Shown here: piece by piece, positions 1 to 47,048 of the stretch | Position numbering within the stretch: position 1 is the first letter of the stretch | Layout of the letters: each line of letters starts with the position of its first letter | DNA from: a virus | Taxonomy: Duplodnaviria; Heunggongvirae; Uroviricota; Caudoviricetes | DNA: 47,048 bases | Reading direction: 5' to 3' (one strand) | Virus record (IMG/VR): IMGVR_UViG_2563366978_000001 | Position numbers and translations under genes: made by a program | The notes under the pieces: model-generated | Told to the model about the DNA's origin: nothing | Seen by the model: the letters and a program-made list of their open reading frames with translations, nothing else | Databases searched by the model: none

Positions 1-24
1 AGGAACAAATTTTAACGTTCCGAT

Positions 25-114
25 ATTGTGTTTTTATTTATTATCCGTTATTGTGTTCTGTTAGTTTGTGGCTAAGTTAACGCGTTATTAGTTATCTTAT
101 TCTCAAATTGTGTT
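25..114. repeat. Left telomere-proximal repeat cluster (ATTGTGTT at 25-32 and 107-114, GTGTTCT at 53-59); also the telN upstream region
   Basis: Direct reading; GTGTTCT is the reverse complement of the AGAACAC repeats at the right end. Confidence 0.6.
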
Positions 115-148
115 ACGATAATCCGAGCGGATAATCAGGAGAGGAAAG

Positions 149-2050
149 ATGAGCAAAGTAAAAATCGGTGAATTAATAAACTCACTTGTTAGCGATGTTG
201 AGTCAATAGATAACTCTGACCGTCCTCAAGGGGAGAAAACAAAAAAAATAAAGGCTGTTGCATTAAAATTTAAAAATGCATTATTTAATGACAAGCGAAA
301 GTTTAGGGGGAAAGGATTAGAAAAAAGAATTACAGCCAACACATTCAATGCCTATATGAGCAGGGCCAGAAAACGGTTTGATGATAAACTTCATCATAGC
401 TTTGAAAAAAATATACATCGCCTATCTGAAAAGTATCCTTTATATAATGAGGAGCTATTGTCATGGCTTTCTCTACCTGCTGCCGATATTCGCCAGAGAA
501 TGTCAGCTTTACAGGCAAAATTAAAATTAATTCTCCCTCTATCAGAAGATTTATCTAATATCAGAATTGGCGATAACAAAAGTCATAATAAGTTATTGAA
601 ATTATCAAATAAATATAAAGAGTGGCAATTCGCCATTTCTGATTTAACTAGCGATAACTGGAAAGATAAGCGCGATTATTTATATAAATTACTACAGCAA
701 GGATCTGCCTTACTTGAGGAGTTGAATCAGCTAAAAGTTAACCATGAGATTCTCTATCATCTTCAACTAAGCCCTGCCGAACGTGCATCTATCCAGCAAC
801 GATGGGCGGACGTTCTGCACAATAAGAAACGTAACGTGGTGGTCATTGATTACCCTAAATATATGCAAGCTATTTACGATATTATAAATAGCCCTGCTAC
901 ATTAAATAATCTAAACACTCGTTCAGGTATGGCTCCTTTGGCATTTGCACTTGCTGCATTGTCAGGAAGACGAATGATTGAGATTATGTATCAAGGTACA
1001 TTTACTGTTTCTGGTAAGTATACCGTTGATTTTTTAGGCCAAGCTAAAAAAAGAACTTCTGATAATATAACCAGAAAAATATATACATTATGCGAAGCAA
1101 AAACATTTGTTTATTTAATAAATGTACTTCGCTCATGCCCAGCAGCATCTGATTTTGATGATGTCGTTAAAGGTTATGGAGATAACGACACACGCTCTGA
1201 AAACGGACGTATTAATGCCATATTAGCAAAGGCTTTTAACCCGTGGGTTAAATCATTTTTCAAAGATGACCGCCGTGTTTATAAAGATAGTCGTGCTATT
1301 TATGCCCGTATTGCGTATGAAATGTTTTTCCGCGTAGATCCTCGTTGGAAAAACGTAGATGAAGATGTTTTCTTTATGGAAATTTTAGGCCATGACGATG
1401 AAAACACTCAATTACACTATAAGCAATTCAAGCTGGCCAACTTCTCAAAGACATGGAGGCCAAATACTGGAAACGAAAATACCAGGCTGGAAGCATTGCA
1501 GCAGCTTGATGACGAAATGCCTGGATTCGCCAGAGGAGATGCCGGGGTTCGTCTGCATAACACAGTTAAGCAGCTGGTAGAGCAGGACCCCTCTATAAAA
1601 ATCACGAACAGCACTCTAAGAGCGTTCAAATTTAGCCCAACAATGATTAGTCGATACCTGGAATTTGCTGCTGATGCTCTGGGGCAATTTGTTGGCGAAA
1701 ACGGACAATGGCAACTGAAAATAGATACTCCAGAAATCGTTATGCCTGACGAAGAAGAACTGGAAGCAATACCTGAACTGGCGGATGAATTATCAGAGGA
1801 TGACGATCTGGATGACGACGAAATTGAGATAGAGGAAGAGGAAGAGGAAGAGGAAGATAGCGTAGAAGAACAGCAACCGCCTGCACCTTCTTCGCCTGTA
1901 TCTAAGCCGGTATTTAAGCCGGTGAGAAATATTGGTGATGGCTCATACGTTGTTGAGTTTCATTATAATGGCCAGAATTATGCGTGGTCCGGCAGTGCAA
2001 ACAGCCCCATGTCAGCAATGCAGTTAGCATGGCTGACATATTTCGGTTAA
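149..2050 (+). CDS. telN: Protelomerase (telomere resolvase), N15 TelN-like, 633 aa
   Basis: 633-aa ORF with RBS AGGAGAGG upstream; length, N-terminus and acidic C-terminal tract match my memory of N15 TelN; sits next to the telomere end as in N15. Confidence 0.9.
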   Translation: MSKVKIGELINSLVSDVESIDNSDRPQGEKTKKIKAVALKFKNALFNDKRKFRGKGLEKRITANTFNAYMSRARKRFDDKLHHSFEKNIHRLSEKYPLYNEELLSWLSLPAADIRQRMSALQAKLKLILPLSEDLSNIRIGDNKSHNKLLKLSNKYKEWQFAISDLTSDNWKDKRDYLYKLLQQGSALLEELNQLKVNHEILYHLQLSPAERASIQQRWADVLHNKKRNVVVIDYPKYMQAIYDIINSPATLNNLNTRSGMAPLAFALAALSGRRMIEIMYQGTFTVSGKYTVDFLGQAKKRTSDNITRKIYTLCEAKTFVYLINVLRSCPAASDFDDVVKGYGDNDTRSENGRINAILAKAFNPWVKSFFKDDRRVYKDSRAIYARIAYEMFFRVDPRWKNVDEDVFFMEILGHDDENTQLHYKQFKLANFSKTWRPNTGNENTRLEALQQLDDEMPGFARGDAGVRLHNTVKQLVEQDPSIKITNSTLRAFKFSPTMISRYLEFAADALGQFVGENGQWQLKIDTPEIVMPDEEELEAIPELADELSEDDDLDDDEIEIEEEEEEEEDSVEEQQPPAPSSPVSKPVFKPVRNIGDGSYVVEFHYNGQNYAWSGSANSPMSAMQLAWLTYFG

Positions 2051-2062
2051 AGCATACAGTAA

Positions 2063-2090
2063 AGGCACCGAATTAACGGTGCCTTGTTGT
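2063..2090 (+). terminator. Intrinsic terminator after telN (AGGCACCG-loop-CGGTGCCT then T-rich)
   Basis: 8-bp stem, 6-nt loop, T-rich tail 13 nt after the telN stop. Confidence 0.6.
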
Positions 2091-2221
2091 GTGACCTACC
2101 TCGCCTGCCCCCTGCAAAGGGCAGAAGTAACGGAGGAAACGCGGCTGCAACCACAGACATCACCGCCCCGACTGCGAGGCTTCCCTTCTCTAAGAAGGGC
2201 ATAAATTCGGGCTGGTCAACC

Positions 2222-3004
2222 CTATTTATTGGTGATTTCTGCTGGCTTTAGCTGCGCGGATAACTGCTCAAGTTTTTGAACTGCCAGTTCAAAATGCGCG
2301 GGTAACGCCTTTTCCAGATCAGAGTTAATATCGGTGATGGGTAAATCACCACACGACATACTCCGCCTACCCCCACGAACAACATCACGCAACAACTCTC
2401 GTTCATACGTGCGCATGTTCCCCAATGCCGACTCAGCAGCCGTCAAAATCCGGCGCAGTTCTGCCGTAATTGCTGGCAAATCATCAACCGTTATGGGGTT
2501 CGGGGATGGATTACGACACGCCCGACGCAAAGCTAACCATACACCGCTAATCCAGGCATTTCGGTACTGAAAACTTTGTGCTATATCGTTAATCAGCCCT
2601 CGCAGATACTCTTTCTGCCTCCAGTTCAACGGCTCCGCTGCTCGCATTGGCTCAGGCTCGATGTAAACGTACTCTCCATTTTTGCGAATAGAGGGCAAGA
2701 CTTCGTTCGTTACCCATTTGCGAAACCGCCAAGCTGTTGTGCCTTGCTTCACCGCGTCACGGCAGCGGAGGATCAGGGTGTATAGACCTGACTCTGAAAT
2801 AATATTTAGCTTTTGCTCTCCGCCAGGGGTGTAACTTAAAGTTACACCCTTTTCATCCTCATCCAGAGACATTAGCGCCTTCCGGGAATTAACGAGTCTT
2901 AAAGCATCACATACATCCTTAGCCACAAACCACGGCTCACCGTTAATCATCACTACACGAACCTGATGCTCTTCCTGAAAGGAAAAGACTGCTAACGCGC
3001 TCAT
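2222..3004 (-). CDS. Phage antirepressor-like protein (BRO-N type N-terminal domain), 260 aa
   Basis: N-terminus FSFQEEHQVRVVMINGEPWFVAKDVCDALRL resembles the BRO-N/antirepressor fold; last gene of a coupled operon. Confidence 0.7.
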   Translation of the reverse strand: MSALAVFSFQEEHQVRVVMINGEPWFVAKDVCDALRLVNSRKALMSLDEDEKGVTLSYTPGGEQKLNIISESGLYTLILRCRDAVKQGTTAWRFRKWVTNEVLPSIRKNGEYVYIEPEPMRAAEPLNWRQKEYLRGLINDIAQSFQYRNAWISGVWLALRRACRNPSPNPITVDDLPAITAELRRILTAAESALGNMRTYERELLRDVVRGGRRSMSCGDLPITDINSDLEKALPAHFELAVQKLEQLSAQLKPAEITNK

Positions 3005-3234
3005 TCAGCCTCCTTATCGCGCAGCAAGTGCGACGAGAGAGACGCAGAATATCCCTGTGCTTCATGCGTTAACTCACACGCAATCTGCAGAAGTTTTCCA
3101 GCCTCTGAGAGGTAAATCGACGCCTCACAACTGGAGACTGTCCGATGGGCTGATGATACGAGCGCATAGACCTGAGCCAGACGTTCATCCAACGATTCCA
3201 GCAGGCCAACAGTGTTCATTTTTACCTGATTCAT
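3001..3234 (-). CDS. Hypothetical 77-aa protein, translationally coupled (ATGA overlap) to the antirepressor gene
   Basis: ORF stop overlaps the downstream start by ATGA at 3001-3004. Confidence 0.55.
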   Translation of the reverse strand: MNQVKMNTVGLLESLDERLAQVYALVSSAHRTVSSCEASIYLSEAGKLLQIACELTHEAQGYSASLSSHLLRDKEAE

Positions 3235-3404: not shown

Positions 3405-3540
3405 TCCGTTTTATTGGTCGTGCTACCACCAGAGTTGCGAATCTCTTTATTGGTGGTAGCCCAGGCGGGGTTCGCAATACCGGTAAACGAAGAAACCGGC
3501 CCGACCGAAGTCAGCCCCACCTGAGCCACCATAATTCGGA
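3405..3540 (-). ncRNA. Candidate C4-type antisense regulatory RNA / structured leader upstream of the antirepressor operon
   Basis: GC-rich inverted repeats (GCTACCACC...GGTGGTAGC) immediately 5' of the first small ORF; by analogy with P1/N15 c4-icd-ant organisation; no homology check possible. Confidence 0.25.
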
Positions 3541-3694
3541 TATGCGCAGGTCTATACACACAAAAAAACACGCTGGCGCGTGTTGTGCGCTTCGTTTTGC
3601 CAGGATTGCGAAGTCCCGACTGCGGGATTTACCGCAGCGAGGTGACTTTACCTCCAAAACGACGCACACGTCAATAATTTGCAAAGACATTTTA

Positions 3695-5598: not shown

Positions 5599-8500
5599 AG
5601 AAAGCGCCCTGCTCTTCGTAGCTGCATGAGCTATTCCCCGTAATGTATTCACGTAACCGCCGCAGCTCATTGCTGGAAAGGTGATCCATGAACTCTGTGA
5701 GGTACAGGGATGCAAACGTCATAGCTATGCTGGCTGATGACCATGATGACATAGTGGCCAACTCCTCACTGGAAAGCGCACTCATCGCCCAGGACTCAGG
5801 TACAGCCACTGGCAACACGGCCAAAGCCTCAGAAATTACTGAATGAGGGGCGTTTTGAACCTGCTCGTTTGTGGATCGCGTTTTATCATCCATATATATA
5901 TTGAGATCCAAATCGCGATCCATTTCGATGGCTGTCTTCTCGGCTTTACGCGTTTTTAGGGTTAGGCCATCTTTCTGACGCTGAACAAGAATATCCAGCA
6001 TAAATGCCGCTGATTCAGGCTCAACAAAACGCAAGGTTGGACGCTTATCGCCGTCTCTGCCGCGACGTTTACCTGTTTTAAGGCCAAGAGAGTCGCAAAT
6101 GTTTTTAAACAACGCTTCCGGCACTTTAGGCTTCCCTTTTGGCGTCATAAAACCACCAATGTGCAGAACGTTATTCAACAGGTCACGGCGTTCGGCTGTC
6201 ATGAGGTTATCTCGAGCGAATTTGAGACGCTCCTGAGTCGCCTCGCCGGTCATAGTCTCAGGGTTGATACCGCAGTCGATAAAGTACTGCCGGAGAGTTG
6301 CTGATTTAAGCGCATAGAAACCGCGCGCCCCGACTTCAACAGTAGGAGTAGCTTTTACCTTGTGATCGATTATTCCAGGGAATTTAGTTTTAAAGACATC
6401 ATCAGCCTGCTCGCGAGTCATCGCGGTCACTACAAAATATTGCCACTGTCCCGCCTGACGGTATGTGTAGGTAAAATTGATGGCTGCTTCTTCCCGGTCG
6501 TAACGACGAGCTGTTACCTCATCTAAAAGCATTGTTTCATAGCGGCGAACTTTGTCTCGAGCACCATCGAAATAGAATTTCAGCGTGCCTTCTTCAACCG
6601 GTAGTTTCAGTTCGTTTTCAATATCCCAGCGGACAAGTTTTGCCTGTTCTTCAAGCGTCAGCGCGCGTTTTTTTAGCAGTTCTTCACGCTCTGATTCTTG
6701 TGGTGTTTCTGTATTGAGGTGCAGATCCAGTGTCTGTTCCCACACAATATCCCGCGCTTCTTTACGCAGATCTTTACCGATATCATTCGCAGCATAATCG
6801 GTGGCCAGCGGTGATACCTTATAACCGTCGCTGTGCATGATGCAGATCATGTTGCTGGCGTAGTCGTTACGCGCAGTCGCTTCAATTGCGGCTGCTTTAA
6901 TTTTCATCCTGGTAAAGTCGGTATTGGCCACCCCCATTGATATACGGTCGCCATCGAAAACGACATCCGTAAGTTCACCGTTCATACCTGCGGTAGCAAG
7001 CAATGCCTGGGCGAATGCTCGTTCTATTTTTTGCGGGTCAGTTTCACGTTTTGCACGAGCTTTATCAAAGCCGATAATAAATTCTTTTGCTGTACGGTCG
7101 CGGCGTAGCATTTGCACTGCATCACTGGGTACAACTTCACCACAGAACATGCCGAAATGACGGTCAAAATGTTTTTGCTCAATCGACACGCCGGATGAAA
7201 TAGACGGGCTATAAATCAGGCCGTCGTATTTTTTGACCATCTTTTTCGGTTGATTGGTAAATGCTTCAACTTCTGGCTCTGGTTTGTTTTTCTGGTTTAC
7301 ACACAGAAATTTCTTACCAGGAAAATGCATTCTCAGGGTGGCTGTCACATCTTCTGCAAAGGTGGAGCTGTCGGTGGCCAACATGATTTTTTCGCCATCC
7401 GATACAGCTTTCACCACCTCGGTCATGATGCGATCTTTTTCTGTATAAAAAACCCGGATTGGCTCACCTGTTTCGCGGTTGCGAACATCAACAGGTAATT
7501 CAATTACGTGGATCTGCAGCCATGCCGGTAAACCTAGTTCTTCACGGCGTTTCATAGCCAGTTCAGCCAGGTCAACCAGCAGATCGTTCGCATCAGCATC
7601 CACCATGATTGGGTGTTGTTCCGTTCTGGCCAGCGCGTCAATTAGCGTATTGAATACAGCCACCGGGTTTTCCATAGCCCGACCGGAAAGAACGGCACGT
7701 AGCCCTTGTGTGGCCTCGTCAAAGCCAAAATAGTCGTGCTGGCGCATCAACGGTTGCCAGCAGTTTTTAACAATCGAGTTTATGCAGATGGTCAGTTTAC
7801 TGGCGTATGGAGCCATTTCCTGATAGCCAGGGTCCTGATAGTGCAGGATATCGGTTTTTACACCTTTTCCTTCTGTCATCATTTCCCACAGGCCACCAAT
7901 AAGGGAAACACGGTGAGCAACAGAGATACCACGTTCTGAGCTATGCATTAAAGGTCGTAACAATCCAGTAGATTTGCCGGAACCCATACCAGCACGAACG
8001 ATGACTATCCCCTGTAGTGATTGCACATACTTCAGGACGTCATCGGTCATTACCGAAGTTTCAAGACGCTTATAGGTGATATGTTGAGGACGTTTATTGG
8101 GATCAGTTATGCGTTCGCTGAATGAGCGCGGAGCCTGGGCAATACGGCACTTTTTATTCAGGCGACGGGCAATGTGGTCTTTTACCGTAGCGCGATAGAT
8201 ATTTTCCAGCCCCATTTCACGCAGAACGATGCAGAACATGTTAAATAAGTCTGACGGACTGTTAGGAACCGGACAGGTTAGCATGCCAATATCCACCGCT
8301 CTCAGCAGCTCTTTGGCAAAAGTACGACGGTTATCCCGCTTAATTGTCTTCAGGCGGTTGAGCGTCAGAGATAGCAAATCAGTGCCGGTTTTCAGGCGGT
8401 TTGCAGTTGCAAACAGTTGACGTGCTGTTTCACGAAGTCCACGCAGTTTGTGCAGGTCGTTGAAGTCACTGCACTCCATTTGCGGATCGTCTTCAAAAGT

Positions 8501-20619: not shown

Positions 20620-20720
20620 CAGCAAATCAGCTTTCAGGGCGCGTTGACTTTCAGGTGTTGCGGCATGCAGATGATAATTATTATCATTGCGGGTCCTTTC
20701 CAGTGATCCGACAGGTTACG

Positions 20721-20732
20721 GGGCGGAAGGCG
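20721..20732. other. cos: cosN cohesive-end site, predicted 12-nt overhang GGGCGGAAGGCG, flanked by lambda-like cosQ/cosB
   Basis: Flanking sequence matches my memory of lambda cos; the 12-mer differs from lambda GGGCGGCGACCT at 5 positions. Confidence 0.7.
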
Positions 20733-20909
20733 CGCGGGTTTTCGCTATTTATGAAAATTTTCCGGTTTAAGGCGTTTCCGTTCTTCTTCTCCGTAACTTA
20801 ATGTTTTTATTTAAAACACCCCCTGAAAAGAAAGGAAACGACAGGTGCTGAAAACAGGCCTTTTGGCCTCTGTCGTTTCCTTTCTCTGTTTTTATCCGTG
20901 GAATGAACA

Positions 20910-21455: not shown

Positions 21456-25136
<3,681 letters not shown>

Positions 25137-44436: not shown

Positions 44437-45426
44437 TTAGTTATTTTTTACATCGGAAGAATTTCCAAACGCCTCCTCAAGAATAGATTCAATTTTACTC
44501 ATTAGGTGCGATGGTATTTTTCTGTTATCTAATTTTAATGTTGTGAAATTTTTCCCATATTTCGCCACAACACCGTCTCCATATTTCTTTTCCCTTTTCT
44601 CTCCATGTGAATTGTTTTTCTCAACAATAATGAAATCATGAAGAGCCTGTATTATTCTTTGCGCATCTAAACTTTCACCTGATTTTTTCATCCTCAGCAA
44701 CTGAGATGCAGCATTTTTCATGGCTGCTTCCTGTCCCTGATATGCTTTAAAAAGAGCGTCTCCTGCTCTGGCTGATAACTCACCAGGATGGTTAAATATT
44801 GCCAATATATCTTTAGGTAAACCGGCTGTATTAATACATCGGCTGATAATATTTCTATCCACGCCTTCGGCTTCAGCTAAAGATTTTACGTTACCGTCAA
44901 ATTCATGGAGCCTTCGCAGGTATCTTTTCCCCCTTTCATAGGCGCTGATAGGTCTATAGTCGTTGCCTATCTGCGATAACCATTGCATTTGTTCATCATC
45001 TAAATCGCCAATAAGAACACGATAATCGCATCCAGTTATAATGGCTGCTTTACGTCTTCGAGAACCATCAGCTACTTCAACAATACCTGACACTTTTCTT
45101 GCGAAAGCCGGATTTTGTTGCCCAGAAGTTAGAAAAGATGGAATTAAATCAGCTAGAGAAGATTCATTTAATAAATCTTGATCACGCTCATTACCTAGCC
45201 ATACCATTGTTGCCATTTCTACTTTATCTGCGGGGATCGTTTCTAACTTAAAGTTAACATTACGTCCGCATACTGGCAAAGTTATGCTATTACCGGTTAA
45301 TGAACTCAGTTGACGTTTTAAATCACCAACCATAGGTGATACCGGCTGATGTTCAGGTGCATGATGATTATTACTCATAATGCGATTAATATCCGGAGCA
45401 TTTTTTAGAAGAGAGCGTTGTTTCAT
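44437..45426 (-). CDS. sopB: Partition protein SopB (ParB family)
   Basis: 329 aa; conserved block ITLPVCGR...SGNERDQ...DGSRRRKAA...GNDYRP as in F SopB. Confidence 0.95.
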   Translation of the reverse strand: MKQRSLLKNAPDINRIMSNNHHAPEHQPVSPMVGDLKRQLSSLTGNSITLPVCGRNVNFKLETIPADKVEMATMVWLGNERDQDLLNESSLADLIPSFLTSGQQNPAFARKVSGIVEVADGSRRRKAAIITGCDYRVLIGDLDDEQMQWLSQIGNDYRPISAYERGKRYLRRLHEFDGNVKSLAEAEGVDRNIISRCINTAGLPKDILAIFNHPGELSARAGDALFKAYQGQEAAMKNAASQLLRMKKSGESLDAQRIIQALHDFIIVEKNNSHGEKREKKYGDGVVAKYGKNFTTLKLDNRKIPSHLMSKIESILEEAFGNSSDVKNN

Positions 45427-46592
45427 TCTTCGTTCTCCCAGCGAGGTTTTATTAGATCATCAAAAATTTCTCGACAAACAGGGTCCCATATAGAGACGGC
45501 ATTTCTCCATGCATTAAGTGTTGAACGCTGGTTTGCCGCTTGTTCAAATACTGTTCGCATTTTTATCTGACCTTTACCTACTTCATCGGTAACGCGTACA
45601 ACCTGACGTAATACCATTGATCCCCATGTATTTCTTATTTGCTCTTCCATCCATCGTGATTGATTTCCTGTAGTGAGACTATATTTAGTCAGAAGCAAGC
45701 GAACGGTCGGCTCAAATCCGCCTAGGTCAACGCTTTCTAGGAGATCGAGAAGCATTGTGAAAAACTGTAGAACAGAGGCGTAATCAAATAATTCTGCAGG
45801 GGTAGCAACAACGATAACGTCAGCTGCGCAAACAACGTTAATGGTTCCTGTACCGAGGTTTGGAGCACTATCTATAACGATAACATCGTAGTTATCCCAA
45901 ACTGATTCTATAGCTGCGCGTAGCATCAGGTGAGGAGGGTGAGGCAATTTACCCTGAGCATGATATTGCATGAGATCTGTTTCTATACGGTGTAAAGCTA
46001 GGCAGCTAGGAATAATGTCCAGTCCAGGCCAGCATGTTGGTTTTATAGCATATTCAGCGTTATCGCGTTCGCCCAAGTAAAATGGCAGTAAAGTATCCTC
46101 GGCATGTATATGTAAATCAGGTACATAACCGTGATACATGGAGGCTGTTCCCTGAGGATCGTTACCTTCAACTAAAAGAACACGATGACCTTGTAATGCT
46201 AGCCATTGTGCCTGATGTACTGCAGACGATGTTTTATAAACGCCGCCTTTGTGTGACATAACAGCAAGCACAACTGGGTTTTTATCTTGTGGCCGTTGGT
46301 TTGGGTTGCCAAAAACAGCTCGCATACTATTGATTTGATCTATGGTATAACCGGCACGACGTTCAACTCTTCCTCTCATTTCAAAGTCAGGTGCAGGTAA
46401 ACGCCCGTTCTTCTCAGCATCTCTTATTGCTTGAGGAGTTACACCAATTAAATCTGCTACTTCAGTTATCCCCCATCTACGCGTGATACGCCGAGCTTCA
46501 GGACTATCATCACCGAATTGAGCTATAGCAATTGCTTGGGTCATTTCTTGACCGCGCGTAACACAATCTTGTAATAACTTTTTCAAAGACAT
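45423..46592 (-). CDS. sopA: Partition ATPase SopA (ParA family)
   Basis: 389 aa; Walker A KGGVYKTS and long blocks identical to F SopA. Confidence 0.95.
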   Translation of the reverse strand: MSLKKLLQDCVTRGQEMTQAIAIAQFGDDSPEARRITRRWGITEVADLIGVTPQAIRDAEKNGRLPAPDFEMRGRVERRAGYTIDQINSMRAVFGNPNQRPQDKNPVVLAVMSHKGGVYKTSSAVHQAQWLALQGHRVLLVEGNDPQGTASMYHGYVPDLHIHAEDTLLPFYLGERDNAEYAIKPTCWPGLDIIPSCLALHRIETDLMQYHAQGKLPHPPHLMLRAAIESVWDNYDVIVIDSAPNLGTGTINVVCAADVIVVATPAELFDYASVLQFFTMLLDLLESVDLGGFEPTVRLLLTKYSLTTGNQSRWMEEQIRNTWGSMVLRQVVRVTDEVGKGQIKMRTVFEQAANQRSTLNAWRNAVSIWDPVCREIFDDLIKPRWENEE

Positions 46593-46882: not shown

Positions 46883-47022
46883 GAACACAATCAAAGATCG
46901 TAAAACAACAATAATAATTCACACAAAATAAAGAACACAAATACAGAAAACAACAACACAATAAAAACAAGAGAACACAAGCTATAAATATTACACCAAT
47001 AGAGAACACTAATCAAGAACAT
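46883..47022. repeat. Right telomere-proximal repeat array: AGAACAC at 46883, 46933, 46973, 47003, and AGAACAT at 47016
   Basis: Direct reading; spacing shortens toward the end (50, 40, 30, 13 bp). Confidence 0.65.
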
Positions 47023-47048
47023 ATCAGCACATAATTCCCCATTATACG
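47022..47048. other. Half of the telomere resolution palindrome (telO/telRL-like): TATCAGCACATAATTCCCCATTATACG
   Basis: Matches the N15 telRL half-site TATCAGCACACAATTGCCCATTATACGC as I remember it with 2 mismatches; the window ends one base short of the predicted symmetry centre. Confidence 0.8.

Follow-up and report, generated by a model that had tools for sequence, protein, structure and literature searches.

The way in which linear plasmid prophages acquire hairpin telomeres has been established for the phages N15 and phiKO2, and it is the mechanism that would apply to the phage described here (PMC10612081, PMC10686437, PMC3540006, PMC12624138). For N15, a 56-bp telRL site has been reported to be sufficient (PMC3540006), and extra repeats flanking telRL are mentioned in the literature (PMC12624138). 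In the N15 reference genome (Ravinvirus N15, NC_001901), telRL is annotated as a 56-bp inverted repeat at 24775–24830, 'cut at 24802/3', with TATCAGCACACAATTGCCCATTATACGC as the left arm (24775–24802) and GCGTATAATGGACTATTGTGTGCTGATA on the other side of the cut. The chemistry of ResT from Borrelia and TelA from Agrobacterium is of the same kind, with cuts placed 6 bp apart, a 3′-phosphotyrosyl intermediate and hairpin products (PMC10686437); however, these enzymes serve bacterial chromosomal or plasmid replicons instead of phages, act on unrelated targets and lack the muzzle and stirrup architecture of TelK.

We analysed a 47,048-nucleotide stretch of tailed-phage DNA (IMG/VR record IMGVR_UViG_2563366978_000001; hereafter, the window), which we interpret, with a probability of about 93%, as the linear plasmid-prophage form of an N15-like (Ravinvirus-like) Escherichia coli telomere phage, both ends of which are incomplete in the assembly. 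It shows well-known N15 biology, overlaid by an artefact of assembly. Near-identical telL and telR sites are already annotated in GenBank, in the record of PhiR46_1, and the finding implies no new biology. What we observed directly comprises the tel site, the protelomerase gene, the layout of the genes, where the axis falls in relatives and a 43-nt offset at the left end. As far as sequence can address them, the defining features of an N15-type telomere phage are all present except for the second palindrome arm, which is absent from the window. Comparison was made with about 19 RefSeq records and with seven contigs from IMG/VR.

In the proposed mechanism, the genome would circularise through cos after infection, and a TelN dimer would bind a palindrome of roughly 54 bp, present as telRL in the cos-circularised genome and as telLL and telRR after replication. 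TelN would then cut both strands 6 bp apart around the dyad axis through 3′-phosphotyrosyl intermediates (formed by Y424), and the 6-nt self-complementary overhangs would fold back and be resealed to give covalently closed telL and telR hairpins. The telLL and telRR junctions that arise by replication of the plasmid would be resolved likewise. A physical hairpin in this molecule, and activity of its TelN on the site, are predicted on this basis; closed ends gain indirect support from close relatives, whose assemblies contain zero-spacer fold-backs centred on the axis.

The window terminates in ...GAACATATCAGCACATAATTCCCCATTATACG, and its last 27 nt (47022–47048) read TATCAGCACATAATTCCCCATTATACG. 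We searched it with the N15 left arm minus the final base (27 nt), allowing up to three mismatches, and repeated the search in 100 dinucleotide-preserving shuffles of the window. The terminal 27 nt matched the N15 arm at 25 of 27 positions and were the sole match in the window at this threshold; no match was obtained in the shuffles (0/100). The initial annotation had identified these nucleotides as one arm of the N15 telRL site, and the search bears this out. Given the annotated N15 cut at 24802/3, the match indicates that the window ends one base short of the dyad axis, which is predicted to lie one base (a C) past 47048; the expectation that the sequence would stop at a hairpin tip, or one base before it, is thereby narrowed to exactly 1 nt. 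The right end contains 10 of the 11 bases of the telO half-site, with only the last C absent. Placement of the axis is supported both by the N15 annotation and by zero-spacer fold-backs in related assemblies. When reconstructed, the telR end folds into a perfect 30-bp hairpin (−31.6 kcal/mol, z = −13), as it must by construction. The features of both ends and of the genes that accompany them are listed in Table 1.

Table 1 Coordinates of telomere-associated, maintenance and packaging features in the window
Feature	Position	Strand	Basis or remark
Inner telL flank and telN upstream region	1..148	+	Preceding 43 nt absent
TTGTGTT copies, left flank	26-32, 51-57, 108-114	+	Inverted relative to the right flank
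telN, protelomerase, 633 aa	149..2050	+	Pfam, identity to N15 TelN, match to TelK structure
repA-like replication protein, 1331 aa	5591..9586	-	Weak Pfam matches to Toprim_3 and origin-binding helicase
cos-like 12-mer GGGCGGAAGGCG	20721..20732	+	Sequence reading; marks virion ends
sopB/parB centromere-binding protein	44437..45426	-	Pfam SoPB_HTH; annotated ParB in PhiR46_1
sopA/parA partition ATPase, last gene before telR	45423..46592	-	Pfam AAA_31 and CbiA; relatives annotate ParA/SopA there
GAACA(C/T) array (five copies) flanking telR	46883, 46933, 46973, 47004, 47017 (46883..47021)	+	tos-type flanking repeats
AACACAA beside the GAACA(C/T) array	46955	+	tos-type flanking repeats
telR half-site	47022..47048	+	N15-arm match, N15 annotation, zero-spacer fold-backs in relatives
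Outer 14-bp repeat TATCAGCACATAAT	47022-47035	+	One C-to-T change relative to N15
3-bp spacer TCC	47036-47038	+	N15 has TGC
telO half CCATTATACG	47039-47048	+	Identical to N15, minus the final C

A protelomerase of the TelN/TelK family, complete with its catalytic tyrosine, adjoins the tel site. The product of telN matches all four of the Pfam families TelK_N, TelK_muzzle, ResT-TelK_cat and TelK_stirrup, shares 77% identity with N15 TelN along the entire protein and matches the structure of phiKO2 TelK (2V6E) with E=1.8e-295. In this match, Y424 (within TQLHYKQF) is placed opposite Y425 of TelK, the nucleophile.

The wider locus resembles that of N15 in its identical 22-bp telO core, in an outer repeat that agrees at 13 of 14 positions, in the 11+3+14 layout of the half-site, in GAACA-type flanking repeats, and in the position of telN about 190 nt from the axis with sopAB on the other side, in addition to the TelN identity given above. 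It differs from N15 in two substitutions in the arm of the window (G to C in the spacer and C to T in the outer repeat) and in its structural genes, which are lambda-like. Moreover, N15 has a 56-bp site with two asymmetric positions, whereas the site in the group to which the window belongs is a perfect 54-bp palindrome. The telRL site of the Klebsiella phage phiKO2 has the same telO core, and its protelomerase TelK is closely similar over residues 1–536, with the tyrosine aligned; the outer repeat and spacer are different (AACAGCACACAACAG on one arm), as is the phage backbone. The Tel/pal system of the Yersinia phage PY54 is of the same kind, but only the central 10 bp (TACGCGCGTA) are in common with the telO core that is identical among N15, phiKO2 and the group of the window; the remaining arms are unrelated (CACCTATTTCAGCATAC) and the palindrome is 42 bp long.

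The order of genes, as read from the sequence, is that of an N15-type plasmid prophage: telN is followed by an anti-repressor region with a C4-type antisense RNA, a repA-type gene, a cI/cB-like repressor and lysis genes, and then by cos in the middle of the window, lambda-like terminase, head and tail genes, sopB, sopA and the right end. Genes for plasmid maintenance are present in the form of the repA-type gene, labelled 'plasmid replication protein, CyRepA1 family' in RefSeq relatives, and of sopAB, which adjoins telR. The lambda cos 12-mer itself (GGGCGGCGACCT) was searched for and is absent from the window, although we take the flanks of 20721–20732 to resemble lambda cos. Lambda-like phage records that share the structural genes (for example, 2G7b) start at the base equivalent to window 20721. 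From the internal cos and these record starts it follows that the window is the circularly permuted plasmid form, with ends at the site of telRL resolution; relative to virion DNA it is permuted, with cos internal. Across 20700–20860 the cos region has lambda-like flanks around a 12-base cohesive end that reads GGGCGGAAGGCG, compared with GGGCGGCGACCT in lambda. Rfam matches above the gathering score were obtained for C4 antisense RNA (3449–3536, minus strand; 82 bits) and isrK (3563–3638, minus strand; 53 bits) in the anti-repressor region downstream of telN, where they are expected for a secondary immunity locus of the N15/P1 type.

Several relatives allow the axis to be fixed at both ends. 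In the record of PhiR46_1 (PV340565.1), telL and telR are annotated and telO is complete, with all 22 bp, at either end; position 1 of the window corresponds to its base 55 and position 47048 to base 46278 of 46290. Measured against this record, the window is 1 nt short on the right and 43 nt short on the left. YDC107_1 (CP025712.1, L003) contains a perfect inverted repeat with no spacer, centred between ...CCCATTATACGC and GCGTATAATGGG..., which is the telL hairpin read through by the assembly; here, position 1 of the window lies 43 nt beyond the axis. Zero-spacer perfect inverted repeats centred between ...TATACGC and GCGTATA... were found in YDC107_1, in pEC21Z151-14K, in the record deposited as the YDC107 'chromosome' and in IMG/VR contigs, and those in pEC21Z151-14K and the 'chromosome' record are telR fold-backs. 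An intact telRL junction was also available. In L014, the right flank is identical to the last 86 nt of the window and continues into CGCGTATAATGGGGAATTATGTGCTGATTTTCAGAACAAAGTCA and then AGGAACAAATTTTAA, the sequence at window position 1, and the predicted symmetric arm connects it to a left flank that shares 97.6% identity with the first 2.1 kb of the window. The telRL junction of p19KM1803_4 is likewise intact.

These relatives are close ones. PhiR46_1, YDC107_1, p19KM1803_4, pZ1323HEC0355-3 and pEC21Z151-46K share 99% identity with the window over the terminal 650–700 bp at each end, and the palindrome, the spacing from telN to the axis and the flanking repeats of this E. coli group are as in the window. 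Searches of the phage, plasmid, E. coli complete-genome and IMG/VR collections returned close relatives but nothing identical to the window, and in the half that carries the structural genes identity to the records searched reaches only about 95–96%. The window telR has C in place of T at position 13 from the axis; the C variant is also found in pZ1323HEC0355-3, in the telR of strain YDC107 and in the seven contigs recovered by scanning IMG/VR with the exact arm of the window.

At the left end, the reverse-complement arm that would complete the palindrome could not be found. A search for the arm matched the right end alone and detected it neither in bases 1–30, as had been stated in the initial annotation, nor in the rest of the window. 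All relatives that extend to the left telomere nevertheless carry the complementary arm, and we therefore ascribe its absence here to missing sequence and not to a molecule that lacks it. In every such relative, the axis lies 43 nt to the left of the base that corresponds to window position 1; this offset was found in L001, L003, L005 and L010–L016. The closest of these cases is L015, which is 99.8% identical to window 1–3214 and carries the same 43 nt up to the axis of a telL fold-back. Because all left-telomere relatives have the 43 extra bases, including one that is 99.8% identical over 3.2 kb, we take 43 nt to be missing from the window. The spacing between the axis and the telN start codon agrees with this offset, at 192 nt in N15 and 191 nt in YDC107_1 compared with the 148 nt that the window holds. 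The earlier proposal that the left telomere is incomplete therefore stands, and its estimate of about 30 bp or more is sharpened by the relatives to 43 nt.

The missing stretch would consist of the 27-nt palindrome arm and 16 nt of flank, and the left end is predicted to read GCGTATAATGGG[G/A]AATTATGTGCTGATTTTCAGAACAAAGTCA, in which one base is ambiguous. The ambiguity arises at position 13 from the axis, which falls in the 3-bp spacer, where the two arms of N15 itself are asymmetric. In strain YDC107 the telL arm has T at this position (TTTCCC) and the telR arm has C (TTCCCC), so the missing arm could carry either GGGGAATT or GGGAAATT. In this phage group, perfect symmetry extends over 54 bp, at the lower end of the 54–56 bp originally predicted, and the palindrome is flanked by a T on either side. 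It follows that, of the arm predicted earlier (CGTATAATGGGGAATTATGTGCTGATA), all but the last base agrees with near-identical relatives; the final A is wrong and should be T. The palindrome proposed for the protelomerase encoded at 149–2050 is ATCAGCACATAATTCCCCATTATACGCGCGTATAATGGGGAATTATGTGCTGAT. An imperfect palindrome, GGAACAAATTTTAACGTTCC (GGAAC-N10-GTTCC), was also noted at window 2–21, just inside the missing telL sequence.

The truncation is likely to have arisen during assembly or trimming, as judged from the state of other assemblies in the group. Left ends start 31 nt from the axis in pEC21Z151-46K, 43 nt in pEC21Z144-46K and 51 nt in pCAVP367-48; the corresponding right ends stop 46 nt, 108 nt and about 50 nt from the axis. 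Short-read contigs (L010, L012 and L013) overshoot the axis by 21–51 nt, and YDC107_1 contains a fold-back duplication of kilobase size; records of 61–75 kb with several separate matches to the window are probably additional duplications of this type. A 14,498-bp 'circular plasmid', pEC21Z151-14K (NZ_CP101203.1, L008), appears to consist only of a fold-back of the telR end of the phage-plasmid carried by the same strain, with the axis of its zero-spacer perfect inverted repeat at base 7249, the exact midpoint, and p19KM1803_4 and pZ1323HEC0355-3 are labelled circular with telRL intact. In pPEC1013-3 (NZ_CP165740.1, L007), 50 bp of the 54-bp palindrome are deleted at about 23.5 kb, such that ATC is joined straight to TTTTCAG; this loss could be a collapse during assembly or polishing, or a real deletion. 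The difficulty that hairpin ends pose for assembly is described in the Autocycler paper. Together with that account, the group assemblies that are truncated by 31–108 nt, overshoot the axis or lack the palindrome point to an assembly effect. Hairpin-ended replicons are thus often wrong in public assemblies, being truncated, duplicated by fold-back or labelled circular, with one palindrome lost and one fold-back located within a chromosome record. In that record (NZ_CP025707.1, L009, from strain YDC107), a telR fold-back with duplicated sopA/parB occupies 13.6–18.8 kb and is probably a misassembly. We also noted that base 1 of pEC21Z144-46K (NZ_CP101226.1), an independent assembly, is the base equivalent to window position 1; the common start could have arisen by chance or through use of the same pipeline.

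Three other accounts of the ends were weighed. The first, which we regard as possible but doubtful, is that a person or a trimming tool cut the ends from a fold-back or wrongly circularised contig, at or close to the palindrome on the right and less precisely on the left. The ends would then record curation and not the points at which the assembler stopped, which would leave the biology unchanged. The right end, at 1 nt from the axis, is unusually exact, given that untrimmed short-read contigs overshoot by 21–51 nt and other long-read records stop 46–108 nt short; tools that trim hairpin overlaps exist (Autocycler paper), and relatives have been deposited as 'circular' with telRL intact. However, trimming that had located the right axis should also have located the left one, if a left fold-back was present. 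It is very unlikely, by comparison with the reading of a plasmid form truncated in assembly, that the terminal match is a coincidence in which the contig of a circular or integrated element broke inside an intact internal telRL. Some relatives are indeed deposited as circular with telRL internal, but the odds of a random break within 1 nt of the axis are roughly 2 in 47,048. In addition, the cos site is located in the middle of the window, and the left end is placed 43 nt away on the opposite side of that axis, so that the two ends are exactly the two products of telRL resolution.

We give almost no credence to a left end that is truly different (a telL deletion or a non-hairpin terminus, with nothing missing): it would fit a window that starts 43 nt from the expected axis and the start of pEC21Z144-46K at the same base, but the 43 nt are there in all relatives whose sequence extends to the left telomere, and pEC21Z144-46K is also 108 nt short on the right, which marks it as simply a poor assembly. 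From what is established for N15, RecBCD would degrade a linear replicon whose end was open, and such a replicon could not be resolved once it had replicated; this also counts against such a left end. The related idea that the 43-nt shortfall is real and reflects a different or open left terminus, with the shared first base of an independent assembly pointing to a discrete physical end or to a processing site next to the GGAAC-N10-GTTCC palindrome (2–21), is extremely improbable too. On the preferred reading, that of an N15-type plasmid prophage with ends lost in assembly, the single base lacking on the right and the 43 nt lacking on the left should be restored before the sequence is annotated, used as a linear vector or used as a TelN substrate.

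The regions next to the telomeres contain repeat arrays (GAACACAA) at 46883–47021 and 26–114. TTGTGTT occurs nine times in the 47 kb, with three plus-strand copies at 26–114, four minus-strand copies at 46884–46980 and one at 46560. The repeats are inverted about the telomere and lie at unequal distances from it. These counts, together with those of GAACA(C/T), confirm the earlier description of inverted flanking repeats, and a GAACA-type motif is found in the same place on both sides of N15 telRL. Comparison of the two window ends revealed no in-register complementarity beyond the 27-nt arms; the flanking repeats are short inverted motifs and not extended arms. Promoter and terminator scans at both ends returned no more than chance and are therefore uninformative about the regulation of telN and sopA or the role of the flanking repeats.

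The outer part of the palindrome varies within the wider set. In the telRL sites of L006, L011 and L016, the outer repeat of telR reads AACGGAAC or AACGAAAC while the telL arm keeps ATCAGCAC, such that the arms are symmetric over the inner ~19–20 nt only. These three sites suggest that the enzyme may tolerate divergence of the outer repeat.
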